Source of the DNA: a virus | Taxonomy: Duplodnaviria > Heunggongvirae > Uroviricota > Caudoviricetes | Length of the DNA stretch: 64,000 nt | Direction: 5' to 3' (one strand) | Virus record (IMG/VR): IMGVR_UViG_3300031760_000015 | Span: 43,641 to 107,640 of that record | Shown here: piece by piece, positions 27,199-52,010 of the stretch | How positions within the stretch are numbered: the stretch's first letter is position 1 | How the letters are laid out: each line of letters opens with the position of its first letter | The notes under the pieces: generated by a model | Databases searched by the model: none | Told to the model about the DNA's origin: nothing | Seen by the model: only the letters and a program-made list of their open reading frames with translations | Program-made: the position numbers and the translations under genes

Positions 27199-27376
27199 TA
27201 GACCTGTAACAGCAATATAAAATTGGACTGTAAATCCCGAAAGATTGTGGGTTCGACTCCCACTCAGCCCCACCATTTATATGGGGCTGTGGCGCAACGG
27301 TTGACGCACGTGAAAAATTGGGTCTAGCATGTGCTGTAACGGGGAGAGGAGCACATTAATATCCCCTTTCCACCAT
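27199..27376 (+). ncRNA. E1: YACAGCAAU-motif element containing a circularly permuted tRNA-like core (T-arm + 3' acceptor CAGCCCC-A-CCA, 7-nt spacer, 5' acceptor GGGGCTG + D-arm) followed by two long hairpins
   Basis: motif TGTAACAGCAAT 27206-27216; T-arm 27247-27263; acceptor halves 27265-27271 and 27283-27289 perfectly complementary; CTGTAAC repeated at 27204 and 27344. Confidence 0.5.
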
Positions 27377-27450
27377 CGGAATGTAGCACAGTTGGTTAGT
27401 GCAATGGTCCGATAAACCAGAGATCGTTGGTTCAAATCCAACCATTCCGA
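27377..27450 (+). tRNA. tRNA-Ile(GAT)
   Basis: acceptor CGGAATG/CATTCCG, D-arm GCAC..GTGC, anticodon loop CCGATAA, T-arm GTTGGTTCAAATCCAAC. Confidence 0.7.
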
Positions 27451-27663
27451 CTTAGTATCAAATCCATCCGATATGGCTGTGGCTACAAGGTGCAGAAGGA
27501 TGGCGGTTGTCTAACGCCTATATGAGTTGAAACGATATATACTATATAGGATGAAATAAAGCAAAAAGCAAGAGAGTTAGAACACGTTAGTTTTACTGAT
27601 ATGAAAATGTAGCTGTGCTACCAGTGGCGCATACCGACATAACTTATGGACACTGGTTTATAA

Positions 27664-27737
27664 GCAGGTATAGTATAGTGGTAATACGGCTGCTTGCCAA
27701 GCAGCAATCACGGGTTCGAATCCCGTTACTTGCTCCA
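27664..27737 (+). tRNA. tRNA-Gly(GCC)
   Basis: anticodon arm GCTGC-TTGCCAA-GCAGC, T-arm ACGGGTTCGAATCCCGT, encoded CCA. Confidence 0.7.
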
Positions 27738-27850
27738 AATAAGGCTATACAGGGTTACGACTCGCGTATAGGATACCAAAAGGTAGCGCGGCGTGTGAAG
27801 AACACGTACTTTCTCGTTGGATTAGGTTGCTAATCTAACGAGAAGAATAT

Positions 27851-27926
27851 GGCCAGGTAGCTTAAAGGGTGAGAGCAACGGACTGAAAATCCGTAGAGGG
27901 TGGCTCGACTCCACCCCTGGCCACCA
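27851..27926 (+). tRNA. tRNA-Phe(GAA)
   Basis: acceptor GGCCAGG/CCTGGCC, anticodon loop CTGAAAA, encoded CCA. Confidence 0.7.
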
Positions 27927-27929
27927 TAT

Positions 27930-28001
27930 GGGTTTCTGGCGTAATGGTAGCGTAGCAGATTCTTAATCTGTCTGGTCAGGGTTCGAATCCCTGGAGACCT
28001 A
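27930..28001 (+). tRNA. tRNA-Lys(CTT), imperfect D-stem
   Basis: anticodon arm GCAGA-TTCTTAA-TCTGT, T-arm CAGGGTTCGAATCCCTG. Confidence 0.5.
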
Positions 28002-28004
28002 TTT

Positions 28005-28114
28005 TAAGACAGTTACAGCAAATTCAATTAGATTATTAGTATAGTGGATAATACATTAAACTTCCAATTTAAAAATCGTCAGTTCGACTCTGACATAATC
28101 GAAAAAACTGTCTT
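28005..28114 (+). ncRNA. E2: long-range 9-bp stem (AAGACAGTT/AACTGTCTT) + ACAGCAAATT motif enclosing an intact tRNA-Gly(TCC)
   Basis: stem strands 28005-28013 and 28106-28114; motif 28014-28023. Confidence 0.55.
28030..28102 (+). tRNA. tRNA-Gly(TCC)
   Basis: D-arm GTAT..ATAC, anticodon arm TTAAA-CTTCCAA-TTTAA, T-arm GTCAGTTCGACTCTGAC; 1-72 A/G mismatch. Confidence 0.55.
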
Positions 28115-28122
28115 GTTATTAT

Positions 28123-28194
28123 GCCGGTATAGTTTAACGGATAGAACATGAAACTTCTAATTTCAATGTCGAGGTTCAATTCCTCGTACCGGTG
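28123..28194 (+). tRNA. tRNA-Arg(TCT)
   Basis: anticodon arm TGAAA-CTTCTAA-TTTCA, T-arm CGAGGTTCAATTCCTCG. Confidence 0.65.
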
Positions 28195-28215
28195 CTTTAT
28201 TAAAAGGAGCTTAAT

Positions 28216-28341
28216 ATGATTTATTGTTATGAGTGTATTTTTTATGATTCTGAATGGGAAAGATGCCTTGAAAAAAATTTTCAATGTAAAATTAATCCAG
28301 AGGAGCATAAAAATTGCCCTTATAGGGAACATTGGAATTAA
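28216..28341 (+). CDS. small Cys-rich protein (41 aa, CYEC ... C..C) embedded in tRNA cluster
   Basis: RBS AAAAGGAG 9 nt upstream; below track cutoff. Confidence 0.35.
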   Translation: MIYCYECIFYDSEWERCLEKNFQCKINPEEHKNCPYREHWN

Positions 28342-28344
28342 TAT

Positions 28345-28434
28345 GCGGGTTTACTCAAGTCTGGTGAAGAGGTCTGATTCGAAATCAGATAGGATGTAAA
28401 AGTCGCAAGGGTTCAAATCCCTTAGCCCGCGCCA
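28345..28434 (+). tRNA. tRNA-Ser(CGA), type II
   Basis: anticodon arm TCTGA-TTCGAAA-TCAGA, long variable arm, T-arm AGGGTTCAAATCCCT, CCA. Confidence 0.65.
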
Positions 28435-28441
28435 TTAATAT

Positions 28442-28529
28442 GTAGGGTTGACCGAGAGGCTGATGGTGCTCGCCTGGAAAGCGAGTTGTCTGAAATATTG
28501 GCACACAGGTTCAAATCCTGTACCCTACG
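28442..28529 (+). tRNA. tRNA-Ser(GGA), type II
   Basis: acceptor GTAGGGT/ACCCTAC, anticodon arm CTCGC-CTGGAAA-GCGAG, T-arm ACAGGTTCAAATCCTGT. Confidence 0.65.
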
Positions 28530-28536
28530 CTTATAG

Positions 28537-28655
28537 AGTCGCTCACAGCAATTGTTCTTATAGAACATATGGGTTCAAATCCCATAATACGCACAGCGTA
28601 TTTAGCCAAATGGTCAAGGCAGATGTCTAACAAACATCCTTCTATTAAAGCGACT
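28537..28655 (+). ncRNA. E3: stem-framed (AGTCGCT/AGCGACT) CACAGCAAT element enclosing a circularly permuted tRNA (T-arm + 3' acceptor AATACGC-ACA-GCGTATT 5' acceptor + D-arm + anticodon arm with loop CTAACAA)
   Basis: T-arm ATGGGTTCAAATCCCAT 28568-28584; acceptor halves 28585-28591 and 28595-28601 perfectly complementary; no T-arm follows the 5' half. Confidence 0.55.
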
Positions 28656-28668
28656 TGTTATATTTTAT

Positions 28669-28700
28669 AAGAGTTTGATTTTAATCAAACTCTTTTTTAT
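28669..28700 (+). terminator. rho-independent terminator closing the first tRNA island
   Basis: 12-bp stem AAGAGTTTGATT/AATCAAACTCTT then TTTTTT. Confidence 0.65.
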
Positions 28701-28723
28701 ACTTCCAAAAAGAAGGTGAGATT

Positions 28724-30421
28724 ATGGGTAAAATAGCAGATATTTTTGAAGGAGATTATCCTATTAATTGGGATTTAGCACGCACTGAACTTGATTTAAT
28801 AATTTTTCGCGCAACTGTAGGACTAAAAGAAGATAAGCGTTATATTAAATATGCAAAAGATAGTAAAGTTCCATATGGTGTATATCATTATGTAACTGCT
28901 ACTACAGCAGAAGATTCGCGCGAACAGGCACGTTTTTTTGTAGAACATGCTAATAAAGCATATAAAAAACCATTATTTTATATCGCTGATATTGAAGGAG
29001 ATAGATTTAATTCAACTAATACTGAACCAGTTTGTATTGCTTTTTTAGAAGAATTGCGCAAATTAGGTTGCGAAAAAATTGGAATGTATATTAACAGAAA
29101 ATACAAGTATGCGGGAAAAGCAATAGAAATGTGTGATATAATGTGGATACCACATTGGGGTAAAGATGATGGAAATATCCCACCAGACTCTTCTAAACCA
29201 AAACATTATAATGATTTATGGCAATACACTAGTAATGGCACATTAGCAGGACTTAATGAAGATGTTGATTTAAATTTAATAAATGGAGATAAGCCATTAG
29301 AATGGTTTATAGAAGGATGGGAGTCAGATAAGGAGGAAGAAAAATCTATGTATGATAAATTTTCTAATATGCATTTTGTAGAATTTTGTAAAAAATTTGT
29401 AGGAATGCCTTATTGGTATGCAACTTGTGTTTATCCTTGCACAGAGTCTAAATTAAATTCTAAAACTAAAAATTATCCAGACCATTATACTTCCGATAGA
29501 ATGTCTCGTTATCGTGCTGATATTGCCGCACATAAAATTTGTGCTGATTGCGTTGGTCTTATGAAAGGTTATGCTTGGACTAATGCTGGTGAAAATGTAA
29601 TTGAATCTATTGGCAAAGAAAAACCTTTATTTACTAATAGTTATAAAAGTAATAATATGCCTGATAAATCTGCTAATGGTATGTTCTCTTATGCTAAAAA
29701 GCAAGGTTTAGATTGGGGAAATATTGATACATTACCCGAAATTCCAGGTCTAGGCTTACATATGGATGGTCATGTTGGAGTTTATATTGGTAATGGTGAA
29801 GCAATTGAAGAACGCGGCTTTAAGTATGGCTGTGTTAAAACTAAAATGAAAGATAGAAAATGGCTTCATTGGTTTAAGATTCCAACTATAATTTATCAAG
29901 AAAATCAAGTTATTCCTTCAGCAGAAATACTTGGCGAAACTTCTTTAAAGAACGGTTCTAAAGGAAATGCTGTTAAAGAGCTTCAAAAAAATTTAAATCT
30001 TTTATTAGGTCTTAATTTAGAAGTTGATGGTATTTTTGGAAAGAAAACAGAACTTGCGGTTAAAACTTTCCAAAATGAATATGGTTTAGAAATAGATGGA
30101 ATTTATAGTGAGCAAACTCATATTGCTTTAATGGCTGCTCTTTCTGATTTAACTACAGAGGAAGAAAAACAGCAAGAAGAAGTTGTTATGCCAGAACCTA
30201 TAAATAATGAAAACAAGTATATTACTAAAGCTTCTGTAAATGTAAGAACTGGTGATGGAACTTCTTATGAAAAAATTACTCATTTAGAAAAAAATATTCC
30301 AATAAATGTAGTATTAGATAAAGATAACAAACCAATTATTTCTTCAAATGGCTGGTATGCTATTTATATAATGGATAAAATTGGCTGGTTAAGCGGAAAT
30401 TATGTAAAGAAAAATACTTGA
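28724..30421 (+). CDS. endolysin: GH25 muramidase + NlpC/P60 peptidase + PG-binding repeats + SH3b
   Basis: GH25 ...LWQYTSNGTLAGLNEDVDLN; NlpC/P60 CADCVGLMKGY ... GHVGVYIGNG; PG_binding GIFGKKTELAVKTFQ; SH3-like C-terminus. Confidence 0.75.
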   Translation: MGKIADIFEGDYPINWDLARTELDLIIFRATVGLKEDKRYIKYAKDSKVPYGVYHYVTATTAEDSREQARFFVEHANKAYKKPLFYIADIEGDRFNSTNTEPVCIAFLEELRKLGCEKIGMYINRKYKYAGKAIEMCDIMWIPHWGKDDGNIPPDSSKPKHYNDLWQYTSNGTLAGLNEDVDLNLINGDKPLEWFIEGWESDKEEEKSMYDKFSNMHFVEFCKKFVGMPYWYATCVYPCTESKLNSKTKNYPDHYTSDRMSRYRADIAAHKICADCVGLMKGYAWTNAGENVIESIGKEKPLFTNSYKSNNMPDKSANGMFSYAKKQGLDWGNIDTLPEIPGLGLHMDGHVGVYIGNGEAIEERGFKYGCVKTKMKDRKWLHWFKIPTIIYQENQVIPSAEILGETSLKNGSKGNAVKELQKNLNLLLGLNLEVDGIFGKKTELAVKTFQNEYGLEIDGIYSEQTHIALMAALSDLTTEEEKQQEEVVMPEPINNENKYITKASVNVRTGDGTSYEKITHLEKNIPINVVLDKDNKPIISSNGWYAIYIMDKIGWLSGNYVKKNT

Positions 30422-30446
30422 CTTTTCCCCAAAATTATATTATAAT
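30418..30446 (+). promoter_or_regulatory. sigma-A-type promoter TTGACT-N17-TATAAT driving the 4-tRNA cluster
   Basis: -35 30418-30423, -10 30441-30446. Confidence 0.55.
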
Positions 30447-30559
30447 AAATATGTTGAGAGGATGACTGGGGAGCAACATTAAGCGGAGTCATGACCGCAC
30501 TCCTTTCCCGTGTCAATATCCTACCTTTCCACACGATAAATAAAGATGGTAGGACGCGT

Positions 30560-30634
30560 GCGCCGGTAGGCTAACGGATAGACCATGGGGCTACGGACTC
30601 CAGAGTGAGGGTTCGATTCCTTCTCGGCGCGCCA
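30560..30634 (+). tRNA. tRNA-Arg(ACG)
   Basis: acceptor GCGCCGG/TCGGCGC, anticodon loop CTACGGA, T-arm GAGGGTTCGATTCCTTC, CCA. Confidence 0.7.
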
Positions 30635-30639
30635 ATTAT

Positions 30640-30726
30640 GCGTCGGTATGCCTAGCAGCGAGAGCACTTGGCTGTAGACCAAGTACGTTAGAAACACCGT
30701 GGGTGCAACTCCTACCCGGCGCACCA
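30640..30726 (+). tRNA. tRNA-Tyr(GTA), type II
   Basis: anticodon arm CTTGG-CTGTAGA-CCAAG, long variable arm, CCA. Confidence 0.65.
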
Positions 30727-30730
30727 ATAT

Positions 30731-30803
30731 GGACCGGTAGCCCAATGGCAGAGGCACTAGCCTAAGGAGCTAGCAAGTGTGGGTTCAAATCCCACCCGGT
30801 CTA
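30731..30803 (+). tRNA. tRNA with anticodon AAG (Leu by anticodon) but class I (5-nt variable loop), A73
   Basis: anticodon arm CTAGC-CTAAGGA-GCTAG; T-arm GTGGGTTCAAATCCCAC. Confidence 0.55.
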
Positions 30804-30811
30804 CTAAAATT

Positions 30812-30882
30812 GCCGCATTAGTTTAATGGTAGAACAATATACTCGTAATATATAAACGCTTGTTCAAATCAAGTATGCGGCT
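30812..30882 (+). tRNA. tRNA-Thr(CGT)
   Basis: acceptor GCCGCAT/ATGCGGC, anticodon arm ATATA-CTCGTAA-TATAT, T-arm GCTTGTTCAAATCAAGT. Confidence 0.65.
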
Positions 30883-30899
30883 TCATAGGAGAGATAAAT

Positions 30900-33797: not shown

Positions 33798-33822
33798 CTT
33801 TCTTTTAAAATTTTGCTATAAT
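33794..33822 (+). promoter_or_regulatory. sigma-A-type promoter TTGACT-N17-TATAAT
   Basis: -35 33794-33799, -10 33817-33822. Confidence 0.55.
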
Positions 33823-33866
33823 ATATACATAAGGTAAGGAAATAAAAAATTTTCTTACCTTAATAT

Positions 33867-33937
33867 AGGAGTTTAGTGTAATGGTAGCACAGCAGCCTCC
33901 AAATCTGTTTGTGAGGGTTCAAATCCTTCAACTCCTG
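33867..33937 (+). tRNA. tRNA-Trp(CCA)
   Basis: acceptor AGGAGTT/AACTCCT, anticodon loop CTCCAAA, T-arm GAGGGTTCAAATCCTTC. Confidence 0.6.
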
Positions 33938-33939
33938 CT

Positions 33940-34376
33940 TTAGGTTCCTCCTGTAAAAATCCTTCTGTTCGCGACAGTGAAAAGGAGTGGTTGTGGCTAG
34001 TAATATAGAAAAAGCAGAATTTATATTATGTGTTCGCCATTAAAGAACGCCGGGAGTTCTCTTACCCCGTAAGGTAGTCCGGAATACACATAAGATTCGC
34101 TCGGCGATTAGATTACGTCGTAAGACAATAAGGTGTCAGTCTAGCGGAAATTGAACTCGTTAGTGTCAATCGTGTAGCATACGAATAATGCTCGCTTGCC
34201 TGCCGTGTGACCGAAGGTGAGGTACGCTGCAAACCAAGAGTAGAAATTGCAGATTAGGGAATGTGTGCTTCGCGGGCACAGGTATTCCCGCGTGAGACTC
34301 GCGGTGAAATCGAGTGGCGGCTCCAATGGATTGAGGCCCAGAAGATGCCAATAGGAGAAGAAACCGCGAGATTTAT
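33940..34376 (+). ncRNA. GC-rich (about 48%) ORF-free structured block upstream of split tRNA-Met; contains GCGGG...CCCGC...GAGACT...TAGTCC motifs reminiscent of group I intron core elements
   Basis: no ORF >30 codons in a 30% GC genome; multiple GC helices. Confidence 0.35.
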
Positions 34377-34414
34377 GGGCGTCTAGCACAGTTGGTCAGT
34401 GCCTTCGGCTCATA
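34377..34414 (+). tRNA. tRNA-Met(CAT) 5' exon (acceptor, D-arm, anticodon stem + CTCATA)
   Basis: GGGCGTC-TA-GCACAGTTGGTCAGTGC-C-TTCGG-CTCATA; 3' partner at 34869-34904. Confidence 0.55.
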
Positions 34415-34442
34415 TCAAGCAAAATCATATCTATAAATTATT

Positions 34443-34853
34443 ATGGATACAAATATTAAAGGTATTATTACCGAATTAAAATGTAAAACTTATTTTTTAG
34501 AATTGGGATATACTGTCTCAACTCCAGAAAATCCAACGAGGTATGATTTTATTTTAGACACTGGAAATAAACTTATAAAAATTCAGGTTAAAACTTGTAC
34601 TTCAGATGGAGAAAAATTAAGTTTTGCTACTTGTTCTAGTCATTTTGTAAATGGAAAAGTTACTCATACTCATTATCAAAATGATAATATTGATTATTTT
34701 TGTACTTGGTATAATAATGAATGTTATCTAATTCCTGTATCAGAGTGTGGGAAAACTGAAAAAAAATTACGATTAGTTCCCACACGAAATGGACAAGTAA
34801 AAAAAATTAGTTTTGCTAAGGATTATATTGCTAAGGAGGTTTTAAATAGATAA
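34443..34853 (+). CDS. PD-(D/E)XK-like homing endonuclease within the tRNA-Met intervening sequence
   Basis: YDFILD ... KIQVKT motifs; paralog of 50608 gene; located between the tRNA halves. Confidence 0.45.
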   Translation: MDTNIKGIITELKCKTYFLELGYTVSTPENPTRYDFILDTGNKLIKIQVKTCTSDGEKLSFATCSSHFVNGKVTHTHYQNDNIDYFCTWYNNECYLIPVSECGKTEKKLRLVPTRNGQVKKISFAKDYIAKEVLNR

Positions 34854-34868
34854 GTGAGCTAGATATGA

Positions 34869-34904
34869 ACCGAATGGTCTTGGGTTCGAGCCCCAAGGCG
34901 CCCA
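34869..34904 (+). tRNA. tRNA-Met(CAT) 3' exon (A38, anticodon stem CCGAA, variable loop, T-arm, acceptor GGCGCCC)
   Basis: T-arm TTGGGTTCGAGCCCCAA; acceptor complementary to 34377-34383; flanking GATATGA pairs with the CTCATATC end of exon 1. Confidence 0.55.
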
Positions 34905-34926
34905 TTTAATAAAAAGGAGTTATATA

Positions 34927-35094
34927 ATGAAACTTGAAGAAATTTTAAAAAAAGATATTGATACTCTTTTAATTTATTTAGAATTTTCTTTAACTATGCT
35001 TTTAACTTCAGAAGGATATACTTACGATAAATGGGCTTTTCTTTTTAAAGCTATTCGTGAAGAAATTATTAGACGAACTGGAGAACATAAATAA
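34927..35094 (+). CDS. small hypothetical protein (55 aa)
   Basis: RBS AAAAGGAG; below cutoff. Confidence 0.35.
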   Translation: MKLEEILKKDIDTLLIYLEFSLTMLLTSEGYTYDKWAFLFKAIREEIIRRTGEHK

Positions 35095-35969: not shown

Positions 35970-35970
35970 T

Positions 35971-36045: not shown

Positions 36046-36072
36046 TTATAATATAAAGGGAGTTAAAGGAGT

Positions 36073-36984
36073 ATGAAAAAAATTAAAAAGAATGGTTTAT
36101 CTTTTGGAATTTTTGGTGCTATTGCCGCAATTCTTGTTGTTCTATTATTTATAGACTTGACTACGCCACAATATGGATTTTTTGCAAAAGTTAATGCAGG
36201 TTATGTGGGTATTAGAGAATATTTTGGCAAAGTGCCTGATGAACCGTTACAACCAGGTTTTCATGTGACTCGTTTTTTTGAGCATGTTCATCCTGTCGAT
36301 GTTAGAACTCAACGCAACACTTATAAAATGGAAGCATTTAGTTCCGATATTCAGCAAGTAATTGTTACAGTTGCAGTAAATAGTAATATTTCATCTGAAT
36401 CTGCGGGAACCTTATATAAAACTGTTGGTATGAATTATCTTACTACTCTAATGGAACCTCGTCTATTAGAAAATGTAAAAGTTGTAATTAGTCAATATAC
36501 CGCAGAATCTTTAATTGCTCAACGAGAAACTTTATCTAAACAAGTTTTAGAATTAATGCAACAAGATTTAAAGTCTTATGGAATTGTTATTAGTAATATT
36601 TCTGTAGAAAATATAGATTTTACAGATGCTTTTGAATCAAGTGTAGAAGCTAAACAAGTTGCTACTCAAGAAAAACAAAGAGCTAAAACCATTCAAGAAC
36701 AGCAAACTATGGAAGCTCAACAAGCAGCAGAGCGTCAAAAGATTGCTGCGCAAGCAGAAGCAGAAGTAGCTAAAACAAAAGCAGATGCAGAAGCATATGT
36801 TGTTCGCGCAAAGGCAGAAGCAGAGGCAGAAGCTAATAAGAAAATCAATGAATCTTTAACTCGCGATTTAATTGATTATACACAAGTTCAAACTTGGGAT
36901 GGTAAGTTACCTACTTTTGTAGGCGGAGATTCTAGTATTCCTATTTTTAATATTGAAACAGAAACTACGTCAACTCAGGAATAA
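36073..36984 (+). CDS. SPFH/band-7 (prohibitin/HflK-like) membrane protein
   Basis: N-terminal TM, SPFH core, C-terminal QA/EA-rich coiled coil. Confidence 0.6.
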   Translation: MKKIKKNGLSFGIFGAIAAILVVLLFIDLTTPQYGFFAKVNAGYVGIREYFGKVPDEPLQPGFHVTRFFEHVHPVDVRTQRNTYKMEAFSSDIQQVIVTVAVNSNISSESAGTLYKTVGMNYLTTLMEPRLLENVKVVISQYTAESLIAQRETLSKQVLELMQQDLKSYGIVISNISVENIDFTDAFESSVEAKQVATQEKQRAKTIQEQQTMEAQQAAERQKIAAQAEAEVAKTKADAEAYVVRAKAEAEAEANKKINESLTRDLIDYTQVQTWDGKLPTFVGGDSSIPIFNIETETTSTQE

Positions 36985-36998
36985 TATGAATACATATA

Positions 36999-37024
36999 AA
37001 CGCACGGGAAACCGTGCGTTTTTC
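36999..37024 (+). terminator. rho-independent terminator
   Basis: AACGCACGG-GAAA-CCGTGCGTT then TTTTT. Confidence 0.7.
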
Positions 37025-37027
37025 TAT

Positions 37028-37056
37028 TTGACTTGGTATAAAAATTATGATATAAT
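37028..37056 (+). promoter_or_regulatory. sigma-A-type promoter TTGACT-N17-TATAAT
   Basis: -35 37028-37033, -10 37051-37056. Confidence 0.55.
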
Positions 37057-37080
37057 ATGTTTAGACAAGGAGGAGATAAT

Positions 37081-46107: not shown

Positions 46108-46195
46108 GCCGCGGTGGTGCAACTGGCGAGACACAGCAGACTTAAAATCTGCCACGCAAGATACATTACCGGTTCAAATCCGGTTCGCGGCACCA
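46108..46195 (+). tRNA. tRNA-Leu(TAA), type II
   Basis: anticodon arm GCAGA-CTTAAAA-TCTGC, long variable arm, T-arm CCGGTTCAAATCCGG, CCA. Confidence 0.6.
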
Positions 46196-46250
46196 AGGAC
46201 TACTGTTCTCACTTCATACGTCCTATATAAACATTCTAGAAGTGAATTAT

Positions 46251-46335
46251 GGGGCATTGGACTTAGGCGAACATGGCACAGCCGGCGGACTCAAAATCCG
46301 CGTCTTTCGGGGTTCGAATCCCCGATGCCCTACCA
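46251..46335 (+). tRNA. atypical tRNA-like, anticodon CAA, with about 8 extra nt in the D region (contains CACAGCC)
   Basis: acceptor GGGGCAT/ATGCCCT, anticodon arm GCGGA-CTCAAAA-TCCGC, T-arm CGGGGTTCGAATCCCCG, CCA. Confidence 0.4.
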
Positions 46336-46336
46336 C

Positions 46337-46365
46337 TTGACTTTCTTTTAAAATTATAGTATAAT
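46337..46365 (+). promoter_or_regulatory. sigma-A-type promoter TTGACT-N17-TATAAT
   Basis: -35 46337-46342, -10 46360-46365. Confidence 0.5.
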
Positions 46366-46395
46366 AATTACAGTAAAGAGAAAGGAACTAATTAA

Positions 46396-46596
46396 ATGGA
46401 TTTAATTGAACAACTTGAAACCTTACGAATTTCTGATAATGATTTTTTTGGACAAAGTTATGAAAAACAATGCGCTTATGCTCGCGCGAATGCGATGTTA
46501 GACGATTGCCTAGAAATCGTTTGGAAATGGTTATTAGATAATAATGCACTAGATAAAGTAGAATACCTTAGAAAAAGAGTTCATTTTAATACTTGA
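46396..46596 (+). CDS. hypothetical protein
   Basis: ORF track. Confidence 0.45.
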   Translation: MDLIEQLETLRISDNDFFGQSYEKQCAYARANAMLDDCLEIVWKWLLDNNALDKVEYLRKRVHFNT

Positions 46597-46621
46597 CTTA
46601 TAATAAAAAATTTGTTATAAT
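46593..46621 (+). promoter_or_regulatory. sigma-A-type promoter TTGACT-N17-TATAAT
   Basis: -35 46593-46598, -10 46616-46621. Confidence 0.5.
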
Positions 46622-46623
46622 AA

Positions 46624-46688
46624 ATATGTAAGAACGACGATTACAGCAATTAATAAGTAAACATAGCTATTGGAGTTATTTCTACTGT
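46624..46688 (+). ncRNA. E4a: stem (ACGACG/CGTCGT) + ATTACAGCAATT motif hairpin element, no tRNA inside
   Basis: motif 46632-46643 directly 3' of the stem 5' strand. Confidence 0.45.
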
Positions 46689-46702
46689 TCGTCGTGCTGA
46701 TT

Positions 46703-46777
46703 GAAATTAAAGGCGGATACAGCAATTTTATATTTTAAGTAATAATCTGTTAAATTATCGCACTTAATAATAACCGC
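46703..46777 (+). ncRNA. E4b: stem (AGGCGG/CCGCCT) + ATACAGCAATT motif hairpin element
   Basis: motif 46709-46719. Confidence 0.45.
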
Positions 46778-46786
46778 CTAGAAATT

Positions 46787-46864
46787 ATGGGCTTGTGACG
46801 TAACTTGGCAAACGTACGGCGTTTAGACCGCCGGTTCTGAAGGTTCAACTCCTTTCAAGCCCAC
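46787..46864 (+). tRNA. tRNA with anticodon TAG (Leu) but class I (5-nt variable loop), A73
   Basis: D-arm ACGT..ACGT, anticodon arm CGGCG-TTTAGAC-CGCCG, T-arm GAAGGTTCAACTCCTTT, CCA. Confidence 0.6.
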
Positions 46865-47384
46865 CAGTCACCTCCCGCTAATGTGACAACCGTTAACATT
46901 TGTTTGATAGTTTCTGTTGGAAAACGGTATATAAAGAAGCAACAGCACATATCAATCGGACGAGTTGCTACGCCGGTATGATTGAAACTATCGTGGCATC
47001 ATTGAAGAGCCTTCACGCGGCGATGCTGTTTAAACTAATCTTCAACTTGCTGGCGATTTGTCGTAAGTCAGCGCCAACCAAATATTGAAGAGCGGCCCAT
47101 CCTTTACTTGCAAGACTGTGATGGGACTTGAACCGCAAGGGAGATTTGTCGAGTCGGAACTCGTATAAGAGAAGCCGGGGTGCGCAAGAAAGCCAGGATA
47201 AGAGTTGGACCGGCCTGGATGAAAGACGTTCACTTCAATATTTAAGTTATCCGCTGACCAATATGCGGGATATAAATAGTTGGGTATAAATTAAGATATT
47301 TTAAGGTAGCATTGGTGTCATGAGCCAATGAGATAAGATGCTCCTACATCAGCTTAAAATATAAATATAAATAAAATCATAGGA
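46865..47384 (+). ncRNA. GC-rich ORF-free structured block between tRNA and HNH gene
   Basis: hairpins GTCAC..GTGAC, GCAAC..GTTGC; no convincing ORF. Confidence 0.3.
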
Positions 47385-47954
47385 GTGATTATTATGAAAA
47401 AATGGGAAAGGTTTTCTGATGAAGAGTTGCAAGAAATTGCTTATAGAAGTTCTTGCTTAGGAGACTACGCTAAAAATTTAGGCTATTCTATAAAAGGTAC
47501 TAGTGGTAATAGTGCTCGTTCTTCTGTAAAAGCAATGATTGAACTTAAACAAATAAATGTAATGCATTTTAAAGGTTATAAAGATAAATCTACACAATTT
47601 AATTATAAACATGTTAATGAAAATTATAATGTTAGTAATTTATTTATAGAAAATAGCTTCGCAGAAAGAAAACTTATTAGACGTTATTTATTAGCATATA
47701 ATTTAATTCCATATAAATGTGCTTTTTGTGGTAATGAAGGGGAATGGCGAGGAAAGCAGATTAGTTTAGAATTAGACCATATTAATGGCAAGCATAATGA
47801 TAATAGATTAGAAAATCTTCGTTGGCTTTGTCCAAATTGTCACGCTACTACTCCTACATACTGCGGTAAAAATATAACTTATCAATGTGAACAAGCCCTG
47901 TTAGCTCAGTCGGTAGAGCATTCGGCTGGTCAGATAGAAACAAGTCCTAGTTGA
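47385..47954 (+). CDS. HNH homing endonuclease
   Basis: CAFCG ... DHINGKHNDNRLENLRWLCPNCH; 3' end overlaps tRNA-Thr exon 1. Confidence 0.7.
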   Translation: MIIMKKWERFSDEELQEIAYRSSCLGDYAKNLGYSIKGTSGNSARSSVKAMIELKQINVMHFKGYKDKSTQFNYKHVNENYNVSNLFIENSFAERKLIRRYLLAYNLIPYKCAFCGNEGEWRGKQISLELDHINGKHNDNRLENLRWLCPNCHATTPTYCGKNITYQCEQALLAQSVEHSAGQIETSPS

Positions 47955-48020
47955 GTGCAAGACTCAAATCTGGCACCATTAACCGAAGTGTCGGCAGTTC
48001 AAGTCTGTCACAGGGCGCCA
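47895..48020 (+). tRNA. tRNA-Thr(GGT) interrupted by a 50-nt insert in the anticodon loop (insert 47931-47980, between nt 36 and 37)
   Basis: acceptor GCCCTGT/ACAGGGC, D-arm GCTCAGTCGGTAGAGC, anticodon stem TTCGG/CCGAA, T-arm GGCAGTTCAAGTCTGTC, CCA; insert folds into CAGAT/ATCTG and TTGAGT/ACTCAA helices. Confidence 0.55.
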
Positions 48021-48095
48021 GCCTGAGCAAATGTGGAAAGTCGTATGTGCGGTTAGCTGACCTTAAAGCTATTCTAATCTAGAGGAGAATAAAAT

Positions 48096-48635
48096 ATGGA
48101 TAATGTACGTTTAAAGATTCTACCACCTTGGACAATTGTAATTCGTAAGTTTGAGGCTCTATTTGATGGTGACCCACAAATTGCTTGTAATTGTAACTTC
48201 AATGGTTCTAATCCTTCTATTGTTCTTGCTTGTAATAATGGCGATAAGGTTGCCGCACTCCAGAAGATTCTTCCTTCTGATATCTCCTTCGGCAATGTGA
48301 AGTTGAACGTTGTCGTGGATGGTATTCCTTCCAATCGAGCTTTTACTAGCAAGGTAGAATTATTTGATATCGCTTTTAAGGGCAATCCAGCATACGCTTA
48401 TTCTGTGTGCCCAGCTGAAGATGGTTATATGTGGATTGGAACTACTTATGTAGTATTTAAGAATTGTGTTGTACAGTTCGCCGCAGATAATCTAAATGAT
48501 TGCCACGGTATCATTAGCACTCTATATCAAACTATCGCAGAAGAACTTCTACGTGGTGAAGCTACCGAAGGTGTTTTCTATAATACTGATGTAGAGCGCG
48601 CAAATCTTGGTAAGCCTCTAGGTGAGTGGCCATAA
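48096..48635 (+). CDS. hypothetical protein with GC-biased codon usage
   Basis: ORF track; RBS GAGGAG. Confidence 0.5.
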   Translation: MDNVRLKILPPWTIVIRKFEALFDGDPQIACNCNFNGSNPSIVLACNNGDKVAALQKILPSDISFGNVKLNVVVDGIPSNRAFTSKVELFDIAFKGNPAYAYSVCPAEDGYMWIGTTYVVFKNCVVQFAADNLNDCHGIISTLYQTIAEELLRGEATEGVFYNTDVERANLGKPLGEWP

Positions 48636-48648
48636 TCCACTCAATTAT

Positions 48649-48723
48649 GACCCTATGGTGTAGTTGGTCTAACATATTAGCCTGTCACGCTAAAGATCAC
48701 GGGTTCAAATCCCGTTAGGGTCG
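48649..48723 (+). tRNA. tRNA-Asp(GTC)
   Basis: acceptor GACCCTA/TAGGGTC, anticodon loop CTGTCAC, T-arm ACGGGTTCAAATCCCGT. Confidence 0.65.
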
Positions 48724-48726
48724 CTT

Positions 48727-48850
48727 TTAGACTCAGCCAGCATATTTTTTACTTACGCATTGAGGAGCGAGTAGCATTGGTTCGAATCCAATTCTTCCCA
48801 CTATATGGGAAGATAGTGTAATGGTAGCACGCTTAATAGTATGAGTCTAG
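48727..48850 (+). ncRNA. E7: stem-framed (TAGACTCA/TGAGTCTA) element with degenerate motif (GCCAGCATAT) enclosing a circularly permuted tRNA-like core (T-arm + 3' acceptor TCTTCCC ... 5' acceptor GGGAAGA + D-arm)
   Basis: T-arm ATTGGTTCGAATCCAAT; acceptor halves perfectly complementary; D-arm GTGTAATGGTAGCAC. Confidence 0.45.
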
Positions 48851-48856
48851 TTTTAT

Positions 48857-48933
<77 letters not shown>

Positions 48934-48934
48934 T

Positions 48935-48963
48935 TTGACATCTTTTCAAAATTCTGTTATAAT
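48935..48963 (+). promoter_or_regulatory. sigma-A-type promoter TTGACA-N17-TATAAT
   Basis: -35 48935-48940, -10 48958-48963. Confidence 0.5.
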
Positions 48964-48993
48964 ATATACAGAAAGAATGAAAGGAATATAATT

Positions 48994-49218
48994 ATGAAAG
49001 AAGTATTAAACGCAAACAAAGCCAAAGCAGAATTTGTAAAATCAATTCATAATTGGTTAATGCGTACTCTTGAACAAAATAATAAAACAGAATATAAAAA
49101 TTGTTTTACTATTGAAGGTTCGAGTATTATGTGTGAGCTTCCTACTGATTATTTCAATTTATTTGATATTCCCGCAGGAACAAAAATTGAAATGAAATTT
49201 ATTTCTAAGAAATCTTAA
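48994..49218 (+). CDS. hypothetical protein (74 aa)
   Basis: ATG behind GAAAGGAA; the track ORF start overlaps tRNA-Pro. Confidence 0.45.
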   Translation: MKEVLNANKAKAEFVKSIHNWLMRTLEQNNKTEYKNCFTIEGSSIMCELPTDYFNLFDIPAGTKIEMKFISKKS

Positions 49219-49221
49219 TAA

Positions 49222-49313
49222 TAAGCCTTTACAGCAATTTTTAAATGGTTAAATTATTTTGTTTAAAGTACAGAGTAAGAGAAGGTTCGAGCCCTTCATA
49301 ATTAAAAGGCTTA
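49222..49313 (+). ncRNA. E5: 9-bp stem (TAAGCCTTT/AAAGGCTTA) + ACAGCAATTT motif element containing a T-arm-like hairpin (GAAGGTTCGAGCCCTTC)
   Basis: motif 49231-49240; T-arm-like 49281-49297. Confidence 0.45.
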
Positions 49314-49319
49314 GTATTT

Positions 49320-49396
49320 GCCGGTTTAGCTTAGTTGGTTAAAGCACTCGCCTTGTAAGCGAGAGACCTTCGGTCCGAATCCGAAAACCGGCCCCA
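49320..49396 (+). tRNA. tRNA-Thr(TGT)
   Basis: acceptor GCCGGTT/AACCGGC, anticodon arm CTCGC-CTTGTAA-GCGAG, T-arm TTCGGTCCGAATCCGAA, CCA. Confidence 0.7.
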
Positions 49397-49414
49397 CTTA
49401 AAAGGAGTAGTAAA

Positions 49415-49864
49415 ATGGGATTTTTTAATCGGTCTAAGAATACAAAAACAGAAAATTTAGAACTTAAACCGGTATCGTCTCCGTCAAAAAAATGTAATCA
49501 TAAATTTCAAGATTTTCCTTGGTATGTAGAAGGAACAGAAAATGATGATATTTATTCTAGACATTGGTATCATTTAACTATCAAAGAACCGTATGTTTGT
49601 ATTTATTGCGGAGAAAGACAAGATAAAATATTATGGGAAATAAAGCGTTATGGTCCACATAAAGAAGCAATACAAGGTTTAGATGATATTAATGAAAAAT
49701 TTAAAGACCATATTAGGCATCGTGCTGAAATTGAAGATATGATAAATGATATGCAATTAGTTGATCCACAATATTTACAATATTATCATATGCTTCAAGG
49801 AACTAAAGACCCATCTACTTCAAGACTATATGAAAAAGAAATAAAACCAAAATTAAAAGTTTAA
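49415..49864 (+). CDS. hypothetical protein (contains CIYCG Zn-ribbon-like motif)
   Basis: ORF track. Confidence 0.5.
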   Translation: MGFFNRSKNTKTENLELKPVSSPSKKCNHKFQDFPWYVEGTENDDIYSRHWYHLTIKEPYVCIYCGERQDKILWEIKRYGPHKEAIQGLDDINEKFKDHIRHRAEIEDMINDMQLVDPQYLQYYHMLQGTKDPSTSRLYEKEIKPKLKV

Positions 49865-49866
49865 TT

Positions 49867-49986
49867 TATGCGGTCACAGCAATTTTAGATATTAATCTAA
49901 GTGTCATCGGTTCGATTCCGATTATTCCAGCCATTTAATTTGGAGTGTAGCTCAATTGGTAGAGCATTAGACTTTATAACCGCATA
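49867..49986 (+). ncRNA. E6: 8-bp stem (TATGCGGT/ACCGCATA) + CACAGCAATT motif enclosing a circularly permuted tRNA (3' anticodon-stem strand TCTAA, variable loop, T-arm, 3' acceptor TATTCCA-G-CCA, spacer, 5' acceptor TGGAGTG, D-arm, 5' anticodon-stem strand TTAGA)
   Basis: T-arm ATCGGTTCGATTCCGAT 49906-49922; encoded CCA 49931-49933; D-arm GCTCAATTGGTAGAGC 49950-49965; no T-arm downstream of the 5' half. Confidence 0.6.
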
Positions 49987-50002
49987 GTACAAATATTTAT
50001 AG

Positions 50003-50061
50003 AGACTCTTTCAGCAAAAGTAAATTTATAAGTCCTTACATTATAAAAAGAATATGAGTCT
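50003..50061 (+). ncRNA. stem (AGACTC/GAGTCT) + degenerate motif TTTCAGCAAAAG hairpin element
   Basis: same arrangement as E2-E9, motif diverged. Confidence 0.3.
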
Positions 50062-50075
50062 TGTAATTAAACTTT

Positions 50076-50176
50076 AAGTCCGTTACAGCAATTTTATATA
50101 AAAATTTAGAATTAATTTAATATGTTGGTTTATTAAAAATTTTGAAAATTTATTGATACGGACTTGATTTTTTTAT
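50076..50176 (+). ncRNA. E8: 8-bp stem (AAGTCCGT/ACGGACTT) + TACAGCAATT motif element with AT-rich loop, followed by a T-run (terminator-like)
   Basis: motif 50084-50093; T-run 50168-50176. Confidence 0.45.
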
Positions 50177-50191
50177 TTGAAAGGTTAAAAT

Positions 50192-50551
50192 ATGAATGAC
50201 GCAAATTATGAATGGCTTTTTCTAATTCCTGAAGGTTGGGTACAGATTGCTCAACAAATGATTGAAGAATGTGAAGCTATCAATCCTTCTTATCAAATTG
50301 AAGATTTAAAAGAAAAATGGGGAGAATTGCGCGTTGTTAGTTATATTAAAGACTACAATGATACTGAATGGCTTCTTCCCGCCTCCAATGATAAAGAAAT
50401 AGAAGAAATAGAAAATAAATATATAGAACAAAGTCGTAAAACTTGTTGCATTTGCGGCAAATCTGCTACGAAAATATCTACTGGTTGGATTTGTCCTTAT
50501 TGTGATGATTGCGGAGATAAGGATGAGAGGTTTTATAAAAGGTTTAAATAA
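50192..50551 (+). CDS. Cys-rich (CCICG ... CPYCDDCG) hypothetical protein
   Basis: ORF track. Confidence 0.5.
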   Translation: MNDANYEWLFLIPEGWVQIAQQMIEECEAINPSYQIEDLKEKWGELRVVSYIKDYNDTEWLLPASNDKEIEEIENKYIEQSRKTCCICGKSATKISTGWICPYCDDCGDKDERFYKRFK

Positions 50552-50587
50552 GGCGGGTTAAGCCTAATGGTAAGGCAGGAGATTGCT
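50552..50587 (+). tRNA. tRNA-Ser(GCT) 5' exon
   Basis: GGCGGGT-TA-AGCCTAATGGTAAGGC-A-GGAGA-TTGCT; partner exon at 51251-51309. Confidence 0.5.
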
Positions 50588-50607
50588 TTTTTACTTAATT
50601 AAACTTA

Positions 50608-51225
50608 ATGGTAGAAACAAAGATTAAAGGGCTTACGACAGAATTATTATGTCAGGCATATCTTACTTCTTTAGGATATAATATTTCTATTCCTATTGGC
50701 GAAGATTGTAGATATGATATGATTCTGGATTTAAATGGAAAACTTTTGCGTATACAAGTTAAAACTTGTCAAGAAGAAGAAAATAGAATATCTTTTCGTA
50801 CTTGTAGTATTACAACATCCGGAAAAGAAAATATTATTCATAAATATACTAAAGACCAAATTGATTTAATAGCTACTTATTATAATGACCAATGTTATTT
50901 AATTCCAATTGAAGAATGTGAAGGAATGAAAGGTAGAAGTTTAGTTTTTTCACCAGAAAAAACAAATGCTATTAAACCTTTATATATTAAAGATTATACA
51001 GCAGAAATCATTTTAAATAAAATCCTTAATAATGAACAAATTAAAAAGGAGGATGATTTTATTGTGTATCAATATGATTTAAATAATAACTTACTTAATC
51101 AATTTTCTTCATACGCAGAAGCAGGAACTTCCATTAACAAACCTTCTAGTCATATAAGTCAATGTGCTAGAGGATTAAGAAAAACCGCATATGGTTTTAT
51201 TTGGTCATTAACATTAAAGGATTAA
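50608..51225 (+). CDS. PD-(D/E)XK-like homing endonuclease with NUMOD-like C-terminus, inside the tRNA-Ser intervening sequence
   Basis: YDMILD ... RIQVKT; C-terminal ...CARGLRKTAYGFIWS; paralog of 34443 gene. Confidence 0.45.
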   Translation: MVETKIKGLTTELLCQAYLTSLGYNISIPIGEDCRYDMILDLNGKLLRIQVKTCQEEENRISFRTCSITTSGKENIIHKYTKDQIDLIATYYNDQCYLIPIEECEGMKGRSLVFSPEKTNAIKPLYIKDYTAEIILNKILNNEQIKKEDDFIVYQYDLNNNLLNQFSSYAEAGTSINKPSSHISQCARGLRKTAYGFIWSLTLKD

Positions 51226-51250
51226 GAAAGAAAAAAAGCAATCTCCCAGT

Positions 51251-51309
51251 AATCGACGTATGTCGGTGTTTCGGTTCAAGTCCGAAACCCGTCGCCAATT
51301 GTGGACTGT
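51251..51309 (+). tRNA. tRNA-Ser(GCT) 3' exon (AA, anticodon stem TCTCC, variable-arm hairpin CGAC-GTAT-GTCG, T-arm, acceptor ACCCGTC, G, CCA)
   Basis: acceptor complementary to 50552-50558; intron-proximal AAAAGCAA pairs with TTGCTTTT of exon 1. Confidence 0.5.
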
Positions 51310-51773
51310 TGGCTTAGAAGCAGCCATTCAGCTAAGGAGTTCTTAATTTCTCTATTAGTGCAAAATGTATTGTGGGCTACATTTGTTATAATGACCCACG
51401 AGTATGATGTGCTGATAGATAATAGAAATATGAGATTTGGCGTAATAGCACACCACAAATATTGAGCTGGTCAGTGTAGCGTGCAGAAAGTTCAAGAAAA
51501 TAAACACGGGGTTACTACACAATAGAATTAGAGCGTTGGAACGGGCAGCCACGAGTCTTAGTAACTGATGGAAGAATGTCAACTTCCCTAATTCTATATA
51601 ATGCGGTGGCGGAATAGGTAGACGCATAGACCGTAAGAGCCTGTGAAATTACGGATAACAACTTGCTCATGTAAGGTGCAAATCCTTACCCGCATAAATA
51701 GACTTGCCCACGCCTCTTAATAATGCGTACCTTGGGGAGCGCGTGTTCCGCGACGTTTAACTGCGGGTTATAT

Positions 51774-51848
51774 GCGGGTGTAGTTCAACGGCTCGAATAC
51801 CTGGCTTCCACCCAGGAGATGAGGTTTCGACTACCTCTACTCGCACCA
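51774..51848 (+). tRNA. tRNA-Gly(TCC)
   Basis: anticodon arm CCTGG-CTTCCAC-CCAGG, T-arm GAGGTTTCGACTACCTC, CCA. Confidence 0.55.
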
Positions 51849-51851
51849 TAT

Positions 51852-51925
51852 AGGGGATTAGCGTAATGGCAGCGCCGCGGGCTTTGAACCCGTCTGTTGT
51901 AAAGGTTCGATTCCTTTATCCCCTG
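51852..51925 (+). tRNA. tRNA-Gln(TTG)
   Basis: acceptor AGGGGAT/ATCCCCT, anticodon arm GCGGG-CTTTGAA-CCCGT, T-arm AAAGGTTCGATTCCTTT. Confidence 0.55.
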
Positions 51926-51930
51926 CTTAT

Positions 51931-52010
51931 TTTAGACATTCACAGCAATAATAAGCAATGCCATTATTTAAATTTAAATCAAAAGATTATTGCAACTTTT
52001 GTAGTGTCTA
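51931..52010 (+). ncRNA. E9: stem (TAGACA/TGTCTA) + TTCACAGCAATAAT motif element with AT-rich loop
   Basis: motif 51939-51952. Confidence 0.45.

Follow-up and report, generated by a model that had tools for sequence, protein, structure and literature searches.

Ro60 and its Y RNA partners are conserved from bacteria to humans. The Y RNAs of metazoans are RNA polymerase III transcripts with a U tail, carry a helix characterized by GGUCCGA and a bulged C, and lack a tRNA-like domain. In general, Y RNAs are built from a terminal stem and a motif on the 5′ side of an internal loop (PMC4201824, PMC12135203). The motif contacted by Ro60 in the known Y RNAs is GNCGAAN0-1G or CGAA, and it is combined with a variable effector module (PMC4201824, PMC12135203). 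Bacteria have at least one Y RNA per species with a tRNA-like effector module (PMC4201824, PMC12135203), and bacterial Y RNAs were recognized as such by lying next to the Ro60 gene, on its strand (PMC4201824). Here, we analyzed a 64,000-nucleotide stretch of DNA (the window; positions 43,641 to 107,640 of IMG/VR record IMGVR_UViG_3300031760_000015), which is part of the contig of an uncultivated tailed phage and contains, between 27199 and 52010, eleven copies of an element with paired ends and a shared loop motif. The eleven copies represent a previously undescribed small-RNA module, consisting of an end-to-end stem of 7-8 bp and the loop motif ACAGCAAU. This module sits next to the gene of a Ro60-like protein in many phages and therefore most probably represents a novel type of Y RNA.

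All eleven elements (E1 to E3, E4a, E4b, E5 to E8, E10, and E11) are on the plus strand and share one layout (Table 1). Positions 1-5 read W-A-G-N-C, the motif ACAGCAAW begins at position 10 (range 9-11), and the 3′ strand ends in G-N-C-U-W, with a G usually next; closing stems of 6-9 bp are formed in 11 of 11 copies. A model that had seen only the letters of this DNA (the sequence-only reading) had proposed such a family, and the family proves to be real, as seen from these eleven elements with stems and from the excess of the motif over shuffled sequence. In the window, ACAGCAAT occurs 10 times, compared to 3.06 ± 1.83 times in shuffles, and none of 100 shuffles reaches 10. Nine of the ten occurrences are on the plus strand, and eight are located at 27.2-52.0 kb, inside an island of 26 canonical tRNA genes (27.1-51.9 kb, all on the plus strand). 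Every stem quoted in the sequence-only reading is present at, or within ~10 nt of, the place given for it. Two copies placed at 46624 and 46703 are indeed elements, but they start ~10 nt further downstream, at 46634 and 46711, and the degenerate copies suspected near 48727 and 50003 correspond to elements at 48728-48849 and 50002-50062. The copy at 27206, for which no closing stem had been found, does have one, formed by 27199-27204 and 27321-27326, and the copy at 28006, previously placed at 28005 and assigned ACAGCAAT, has ACAGCAAA instead.

The module recurs well beyond this phage. Approximately 170 distinct copies (171 elements scored) were found in ~100 uncultivated viral contigs, where they follow the strand of the neighboring genes. 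A covariance model of 108 mini elements from outside the window, each reduced to stem, motif, and flanks, matched the motif alone, with E values of 0.08-10; it failed across the variable interior of 20-110 nt, and the elements were therefore detected by our own pattern-plus-stem scripts with strand and shuffle controls. Relaxed searches of this kind include false positives in coding regions; moreover, only parts of the related contigs were covered, and a gene missing near an element carries no weight. In 28 viral loci collected by a search with the protein encoded at 38483-40111 of the window, the exact motif with a stem of at least 6 bp occurs 33 times on the strand of the gene and twice on the opposite strand. 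A DNA-only scan of IMG/VR with AAGACNNNNACAGCAATT matched at least 120 loci. Among the matches listed, 49 of 130 (38%) have a perfect stem of at least 6 bp from position 1, where ~6 are expected by chance, whereas the identical pattern in cellular genomes is accompanied by a stem in 7 of 121 cases (5.8%), which is the chance rate.

The architecture of the stem can be deduced from 148 distinct elements chosen on pairs 1-6 alone, which leaves pairs 7-9 as an independent test. Pair 7 is formed in 134 of the 148, compared to 73 ± 4.5 after shuffling, and employs all four Watson-Crick types. At this pair, the G-U type is also more frequent than the A-C type (12 versus 5). Pair 8 is formed in 87 elements (62 expected), and pair 9 is at chance level in this set. 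The composition of pair 6 is AU 61, GC 36, UA 28, and CG 23, and the base following the helix is G in 117 of 148. On these statistics of pairs 6-9, the stem is a helix of 7-8 bp with five semi-conserved outer pairs (WAGRC/GYCUW) and freely covarying inner pairs. The sequence-only reading had called the stem non-conserved, which is correct for the inner 2-3 pairs but not for the outer five. The 108 non-window elements are 94.8% paired, compared to 69.9% after shuffling and 34-50% after sliding the partner column; this set was preselected for seven pairs and thus illustrates the stem rather than proving it. Pairing of the AAU of the motif with the bases before the 3′ strand is at chance level in the family (mean helix 2.95 nt versus 2.96 nt with permuted partners), and it does form in the subfamilies of E1, E7, and E8 and of the related loci L012 and L013 (loci outside the window are numbered with the prefix L). 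The strand bias of 33 versus 2, the covariation of pair 7, and the stem frequencies of 38% versus 5.8% bear out the proposal that the copies form an RNA structural family and not a DNA repeat. Compensatory stem changes in related genomes, on which that proposal had been made to depend, are seen at pair 7 and in the orthologues of E5 in five phages, where the closing stem, the T arm, and an anticodon-like hairpin are all maintained by such changes. The module was also rightly taken as undescribed, since no Rfam 15 family matches it in the window and 14 related loci. One further occurrence is unusual in its source: three tandem 50-nt copies (AAGACACTA ACAGCAATT ... GTGTCTT), ~250-290 nt apart, are located at 10584-11175 (minus strand) of L032, a contig in a GVMAG giant-virus bin, which may be a mis-binned phage.

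The lengths of the elements, ~45-130 nt overall, are bimodal, with maxima at 50-70 nt and 90-130 nt. The short elements enclose an AT-rich loop with a weak hairpin at most, the long ones enclose tRNA-shaped bodies, and a T-loop motif is present in 44 of 171 elements. In the window, the classes of interior proposed from the sequence alone hold: an intact tRNA-Gly (28006); a tRNA-like body with a T arm (49222); circularly permuted tRNA order (27199, 28537, 48728, and 49867); and AT-rich loops (46634, 46711, 50002, 50076, and 51933). The three tRNA-shaped classes recur in related phages. The permuted copies E1, E3, E6, and E10 have the order (hairpin), T arm, acceptor 3′ strand, short linker, acceptor 5′ strand, and D arm. 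In E1, an anticodon arm comes first, the acceptor 3′ strand is followed by an encoded CCA, and the linker is 7 nt. E3 runs from a V hairpin through the T arm, an acceptor stem closed by an ACA triloop, and the D arm to a complete anticodon arm with the loop CUAACAA, its chain break being in the variable region. When these four copies were duplicated in tandem, ARAGORN found complete cloverleaves across the joined ends, with the handle (the stem and ACAGCAAW) as an "intron" and with the identities Tyr-GUA (E1), Val-AAC (E3), Lys (E6), and Val-UAC (E10). The halves of E6, restored to tRNA order in silico, match ordinary tRNA genes of phages over the full length, and reordered E1 gives a T-arm match only.

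Several related elements show variations on these interiors. In the E5 family (window, L012, L013, L014, L017, and L027), the loop keeps C32, U33, G34, A37, and A38, and its two middle bases vary between related phages (GUU, GUA, GCG, and GCA), suggesting a constraint on the loop frame and not on one anticodon. Common to the framed tRNAs of L011 (7626-7738), L012 (4138-4244), L013 (2510-2616), and L021 (8117-8229) is a conserved additional hairpin, CTCGCT-CTT-AGCGAG, which separates the acceptor 5′ strand from the D arm. Two of them, L012 and L013, have an acceptor stem (AATTAGG/CCTAATT) that starts with the AAT of the motif and stacks directly on the closing stem, so that ACAGC remains as a 5-nt bulge. 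In addition, tRNA-like genes of 113-134 nt that adjoin Ro60-like genes (L034, 3789-3911, minus strand; L236, 5938-6052 and 6210-6343; L033, 1499-1615; L037, 3490-3615, minus strand) carry the module as a closed hairpin in or beside the anticodon region. The order is then 3′ strand, loop, 5′ strand, two bases, and ACAGCAAW, e.g., GTGTCT-GGAT-AGACAC-CT-ACAGCAAA, and this closed hairpin is a circular permutation of the "frame" of the window type.

The protein encoded at 38483-40111 has no match to Pfam TROVE (PF05731), and a PDB sequence search with it did not retrieve Ro60. An AlphaFold model was built from 35 homologues (pLDDT 80, pTM 0.75) and compared by Foldseek. It aligns with Xenopus Ro60 (1yvr) over 572 columns at E 4e-10 and a TM score of 0.57-0.59, and full-length matches comprise 1yvr, 2i91, 9nep, 9kop, and 9l5y (E 4e-10 to 1e-7, TM ~0.5-0.59), among which 9l5y and 9kop are the Ro60 of Thermus phage phiLo. 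The residues D345, T346, S347, and S349 of the DxSxS metal ion-dependent adhesion site are invariant among the 35 homologues. As judged from the predicted fold, the product is a full-length structural homologue of Ro60, with a TROVE ring of helical repeats and a C-terminal vWA domain. Its clade, of which more than 6,700 homologues were scored, is not connected to TROVE by sequence profiles, and the searchable literature held no description of the module motif or of an RNA partner of DUF2828 proteins.

The RNA elements are linked to this gene by genomic position. Ro-like loci at 32-38% protein identity to the window have tandem arrays of 2-5 short elements, 20-75 nt up- or downstream of the gene and on the same strand. 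The arrays lie beside the gene, yet several of these loci (L026, L037, L038, L070, L077, and L116) have no tRNA in 7-15 kb; L025, L033, L034, and L048 show a like arrangement. The distance between element and gene is 20-500 nt in L025, L026, L033, L034, L037, L038, L048, L070, L077, L093, L116, L236, and L258. Conversely, for the viral loci found by the DNA pattern and having a confirmed stem, the gene is present in 10 of 43 among the matches listed, within a few kb in each. Among 120 cellular pattern loci, it is present in three (L181, L236, and L258), and both cellular matches with 8-bp stems (L236 and L258) are in these gene-bearing loci, 60 and 178 nt from the gene. No conserved protein neighbor, such as a ligase or nuclease, was found to travel with the element; the protein neighbors differ between loci, the RNA ligase of the window has no relative in the other element-bearing loci, and its Band-7 protein has almost none. 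Since the protein neighbors vary and no other Rfam RNA is common to the Ro-like loci, the RNA element is the only constant partner of the Ro60-like gene. The drum RNA of the window was tried as the true partner of the Ro-like protein and was rejected, because 14 other loci with the Ro-like gene lack it. Within the clade of the window, 2-10 kb separate the elements, which are in tRNA operons, from the gene, and the link for this phage thus rests on its more distant relatives. The gene itself stands in a cluster of repair- and tRNA-related genes (36073-42396; Table 1), and an RNA-repair neighborhood of this kind has been described for phage TROVE proteins (PMC7824862).

Table 1. Positions of the RNA elements, the Ro60-like gene, and neighboring features in the window
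Feature	Position	Strand	Stem (5′/3′)	Motif	Interior or remarks
E1	27199-27326	+	TAGACC (27199-27204)/GGTCTA (27321-27326)	27209-27216	circularly permuted tRNA-Tyr(GUA)-like body
E2	28006-28114	+	AAGACAGTT/AACTGTCTT	ACAGCAAA, 28015-28022	frames intact tRNA-Gly(UCC), 28029-28103
E3	28536-28656	+	(G)AGTCGCT/AGCGACT(T)	28545-28552	
E4a	46634-46695	+	ACGACGA/TCGTCGT	46643-46650	short, AT-rich
E4b	46711-46779	+	AGGCGG/CCGCCT	46719-46726	AT-rich; tRNA-Leu 9 nt downstream
E10 (degenerate)	48728-48849	+	TAGACTCA/TGAGTCTA	CCAGCATA	circularly permuted tRNA-Val(UAC)-like
E5	49222-49313	+	TAAGCCTTT/AAAGGCTTA	49231-49238	tRNA-like body, anticodon-like hairpin and T arm
E6	49867-49986	+	TATGCGGT/ACCGCATA	49876-49883	permuted tRNA-like body, encoded CCA
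E11 (degenerate)	50002-50062	+	GAGACTC/GAGTCTT	TCAGCAAA	short, AT-rich
E7	50076-50165	+	AAGTCCGT/ACGGACTT	50085-50092	AT-rich
E8	51933-52010	+	TAGACA/TGTCTA	51942-51949	AT-rich, inner helix GCAATAAT/ATTATTGC
Ro60-like protein gene	38483-40111	+			542 aa; Pfam DUF2828 and DUF7788, weak VWA_2 (vWA) match
SPFH/Band-7	36073-36984				repair/tRNA-related cluster
DUF5662	37057-37542				repair/tRNA-related cluster
Peptidyl-tRNA hydrolase PTH2	37605-38108				repair/tRNA-related cluster
cREC cyclic-phosphate-processing domain protein	40356-40721	+			beside the Ro60-like gene
183-aa open reading frame without family	40666-41217				repair/tRNA-related cluster
RNA ligase (PF09414)	41746-42396	+			near the Ro60-like gene
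drum RNA (Rfam RF02958)	43192-43303				70.8 bits versus threshold 43; between RNA ligase gene and tRNA-Glu

The window elements are situated within promoter-to-terminator tRNA units, either 3-9 nt from a tRNA gene or directly after a promoter. A promoter at 27057-27085 lies upstream of the block E1-E3, and an intrinsic terminator at 28669-28694 lies downstream of E3. E4a begins 12 nt past the -10 box of a strong promoter at 46593-46621, and E8 starts 6 nt past tRNA-Gln. Near-consensus promoters of the form TTGACT-17-TATAAT, many of which have the TG of an extended -10 box, are found at 26623, 27057, 46337, 46593, and 48935, and further copies at 38375 and 40157 were spotted by eye. These promoters precede tRNA blocks and small open reading frames (ORFs), which suggests many short transcription units for the host polymerase.

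The module shares several properties with the bacterial Y RNAs YrlA and YrlB (Rfam RF02553; PMC4201824) and with Yrl1 and Yrl2 of phage phiLo (PMC12135203), a comparison that the sequence-only reading had not drawn. The common properties are paired ends, a loop motif on the 5′ side, in divergent relatives of the window same-strand genes beside a Ro60-type gene (often several in a row), an RNA-repair context, members in phages, and one class that contains a domain of V, T, closed acceptor, and D parts next to another class that does not. The tRNA-like order of the YrlA type is present in E1, E3, E6, and E10, and the other seven window copies lack it, like YrlB. E6 aligns with positions 23-88 of the Rfam YrlA model, which comprise its T, acceptor, and D part, at 30.6 bits, leaving the handle unaligned. 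The differences are that the motif here is ACAGCAAW with its own semi-conserved stem pairs (WAGRC/GYCUW), that the partner belongs to Pfam DUF2828/DUF7788 and not to Pfam TROVE, that up to 11 copies per genome are scattered in tRNA operons, and that some interiors are whole tRNAs or have full anticodon arms and an encoded CCA. With the metazoan Y RNAs, the elements would have in common a terminal stem for recognition by a Ro60 ring protein and a large variable internal loop as effector module, but the sequences are unrelated. By analogy, the element appears to work like a Y RNA yet not to be a member of the described YrlA family, because the contact motif is absent, the Rfam score is below threshold, and the partner is outside Pfam TROVE. 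A motif and conserved pairs unlike those of known Y RNAs would be the expected outcome if the RNA had evolved jointly with a highly divergent Ro60.

The sequence-only reading had offered three candidate roles, namely a protein-binding site, a processing signal for tRNA-island transcripts, and a guide for circularization or ligation. A putative binding site for the Ro60-like protein is the best supported of these because the protein folds as Ro60 and the elements cluster by its gene even where tRNAs are lacking. Collectively, the elements probably constitute a new Y-RNA-like family, in which the stem and motif serve as a handle for the Ro60-like protein, around an interior that is a short loop in some members and a tRNA-like body in others. 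We infer that the elements are transcribed, acquire defined ends, are physically bound by the protein, and have a biological role, which could take the following form. The elements would be genes for small structured RNAs of ~45-130 nt on one common handle, whose 5′ and 3′ ends would pair in a terminal helix of 7-8 bp with the outer pairs 5′-WAGRC/GYCUW-3′ and covarying inner pairs. An unpaired G would follow the helix, and the enclosed loop would open on its 5′ side with single-stranded ACAGCAAW, from nucleotide 10 on. The phage Ro60-like ring protein most likely docks on this handle, and the interiors would be YrlB-like (short AT-rich loop) or YrlA-like (V, T, acceptor, D) modules, with some whole tRNAs. 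As the element genes are inside tRNA operons, their RNAs would be released by the enzymes that trim the neighboring tRNAs, RNase P and the 3′ tRNA-trimming enzymes. The particle would probably participate in the surveillance or repair of tRNAs, alongside the products of the adjacent genes for peptidyl-tRNA hydrolase, cyclic-phosphate processing, and RNA ligase.

A number of observations weigh against this assignment. Eleven copies per genome exceed, to our knowledge, any described Ro60 system. The gathering threshold of the Rfam YrlA model is 69 bits, compared to a best score of 30.6 for E6 and no match up to an E value of 5 for the other copies, and the motif GNCGAAN0-1G is effectively absent, as G.CGAA occurs within the first 30 nt of just 2 of 171 elements. 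The Ro-like gene and its nearest element are at least 6.5 kb apart in the window and its closest relatives, always with the element among tRNAs; the nearest window copies, which share the strand of the gene, lie at distances of 6.5 kb and 9.8 kb, compared to ~4 kb or less for RNAs of the YrlA type. The YrlA handle always replaces the anticodon stem, whereas the joint between handle and tRNA varies here, being at 26/27 in E1, at 31/32 in E10, at ~38/39 beside the anticodon loop in E6, and in the variable region in E3; in addition, some tRNA-like genes are continuous except for the module, which they contain as a closed hairpin. Furthermore, complete anticodon arms with proper loops (CUGUAAA and CUUACGC) are more than a mimic needs, the acceptor strand of E1 and E6 is followed by an encoded CCA, and the canonical tRNA set of the window has no other gene for Tyr, Val, or Lys-UUU.

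These observations could point to an excision signal with a role like that of a bulge-helix-bulge, where the cREC protein and the RNA ligase join tRNA halves, with the Ro60-like protein as a possible platform, and the permuted E1, E3, E6, and E10 as well as the interrupted tRNA genes become functional tRNAs; in E6, the junction would join ...CUUU to UAAUCUAA.... We regard this as rather unlikely. It would agree with the ARAGORN cloverleaves in which the module is the "intron", with the identities of all four copies being missing from the 26 canonical tRNAs, with the encoded CCA of E1 and E6 and the end-to-end alignment of reordered E6, and with the module being located at several tRNA positions, as an open frame or as a closed hairpin (L034, L236, L033, and L037). 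The genes of the cREC protein and RNA ligase adjoin the Ro-like gene, and three interrupted tRNA genes of the window have no group I intron signature. The relation between open frame and closed hairpin keeps this alternative alive, and it mirrors that between permuted and intron-bearing tRNA genes in Cyanidioschyzon, the splicing of which is directed by the bulge-helix-bulge (PMC3978253). The permuted tRNA genes of Cyanidioschyzon merolae and some archaea (PMC3978253, PMC3218864) likewise have the 3′ half first and a short acceptor linker; in permuted and bulge-helix-bulge tRNA genes, as here, a leader pairs with a trailer, the positions of the break vary, and the module is present in both permuted and interrupted genes. 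The present case differs in its bacteriophage host, in the absence of a 3-4-3 bulge-helix-bulge, and in that most modules have no tRNA halves, which holds for nearly all members beside Ro-like genes; some members even frame tRNAs that are already intact. On inspection of the junctions, no bulge-helix-bulge was found, the joining strands being 4-7 nt and 18-30 nt without a 4-bp helix with 3-nt bulges, and the distances from the module to the exon ends vary. No tRNA splicing endonuclease was found among 20 ORFs scanned against Pfam, several small ones of which have no family, and the lack of relatives of the window RNA ligase in other element-bearing loci also speaks against excision. In the window, permuted tRNAs conspicuously fill gaps in the tRNA set, but over 24 permuted elements the pattern lacks significance; a canonical anticodon is duplicated in 4 cases (~7 expected by chance), and several of the predicted anticodons (ATA, ACA, AGT, and AAA) are implausible. 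Some copies with full anticodon arms, CCA, and missing isoacceptor identities may be real tRNAs from rearranged genes, a situation unreported for bacteria or their viruses in the searchable literature. That the stem and ACAGCAAW act as a portable processing and ligation tag, through which the Ro60-like ring captures precursors that are cut and then resealed by end-healing and ligase enzymes, is in our judgment unlikely.

The association with tRNA genes could also be explained without the Ro60-like protein, if the elements were general hairpins of tRNA operons, functioning as entry or stop sites of a ribonuclease of host or phage, stabilizers, or spacers, and if they were near the Ro-like gene only through shared tRNA islands. 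The positions of the window elements, so close to tRNA genes or promoters, and the density of 12 tRNAs per 10 kb in element loci versus 1 per 10 kb in loci without elements are consistent with this idea. It is nevertheless quite improbable, given that arrays flank the Ro-like gene in the tRNA-less loci named above, that real cellular elements occur only where the gene is present, and that an invariant 8-nt motif and five semi-conserved pairs exceed what a stabilizer needs. Very much less credible is an element at the DNA level, such as a miniature inverted-repeat mobile element, a recombination site, or the target of a homing endonuclease. The copies are dispersed and have inverted-repeat ends, in a region rich in homing-endonuclease genes (GIY-YIG, HNH, and two PD-(D/E)XK by Pfam), but all of them are on the transcribed strand, their inverted repeats differ by copy while staying complementary, and their unrelated interiors are arranged relative to the stem as tRNA-like folds. 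Neither an endonuclease nor a recombinase co-varies with the element, and no target-site duplications were seen.

Other features of the region were noted along with the elements. A close relative of the window was not found among 50,697 deposited phage genomes, in which the sole match was a tRNA-Pro gene; the nearest metagenomic relatives are contigs of ~105-181 kb. The three interrupted tRNA genes, for which Rfam gives no group I intron signature, are located at 34376-34905, 47895-48020, and 50552-51297. The first is a tRNA-Met-CAU with a 454-nt insert at 37/38, nearly all of which is the ORF of a PD-(D/E)XK endonuclease (34443-34853), and the second is an Asn-GUU or Thr-GGU tRNA with a 50-nt insert. 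The third, which has a 652-nt insert containing a PD-(D/E)XK+NUMOD1 ORF (50608-51225), belongs to class II and is probably a tRNA-Ser-GCU; the ends of its insert form a perfect 15-bp helix that lengthens the anticodon stem. Two GC-richer stretches of 450-480 nt in the tRNA island (46870-47330 and 51290-51770) have no convincing ORF and may be additional structured RNAs; the latter contains sub-threshold matches to skipping-rope RNA at 51524-51595 (29.3 bits versus 36.7) and to abiF RNA at 51707-51736. Finally, Rfam recognizes a tRNA at 30640-30723 (38.2 bits), between tRNA-Arg and tRNA-Leu, which ARAGORN does not report.

As a Y-RNA-like family, the elements described here pair a second, very divergent clade of Ro60-like proteins ("DUF2828") with an RNA partner of its own, which differs in its recognition motif but is likewise made of two modules, a handle and a tRNA-like body. 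In this way, a large family of uncharacterized proteins acquires a likely function, and an independent system becomes available for asking what the tRNA-like module is for. A more radical possibility is that the phage has tRNA genes that need cutting and rejoining. If the reading of the module as a processing tag were true, neither protein-dependent tRNA splicing nor permuted tRNA genes would have a precedent in the bacterial world, and a concrete biochemical job would be assigned to the Ro60-type proteins.

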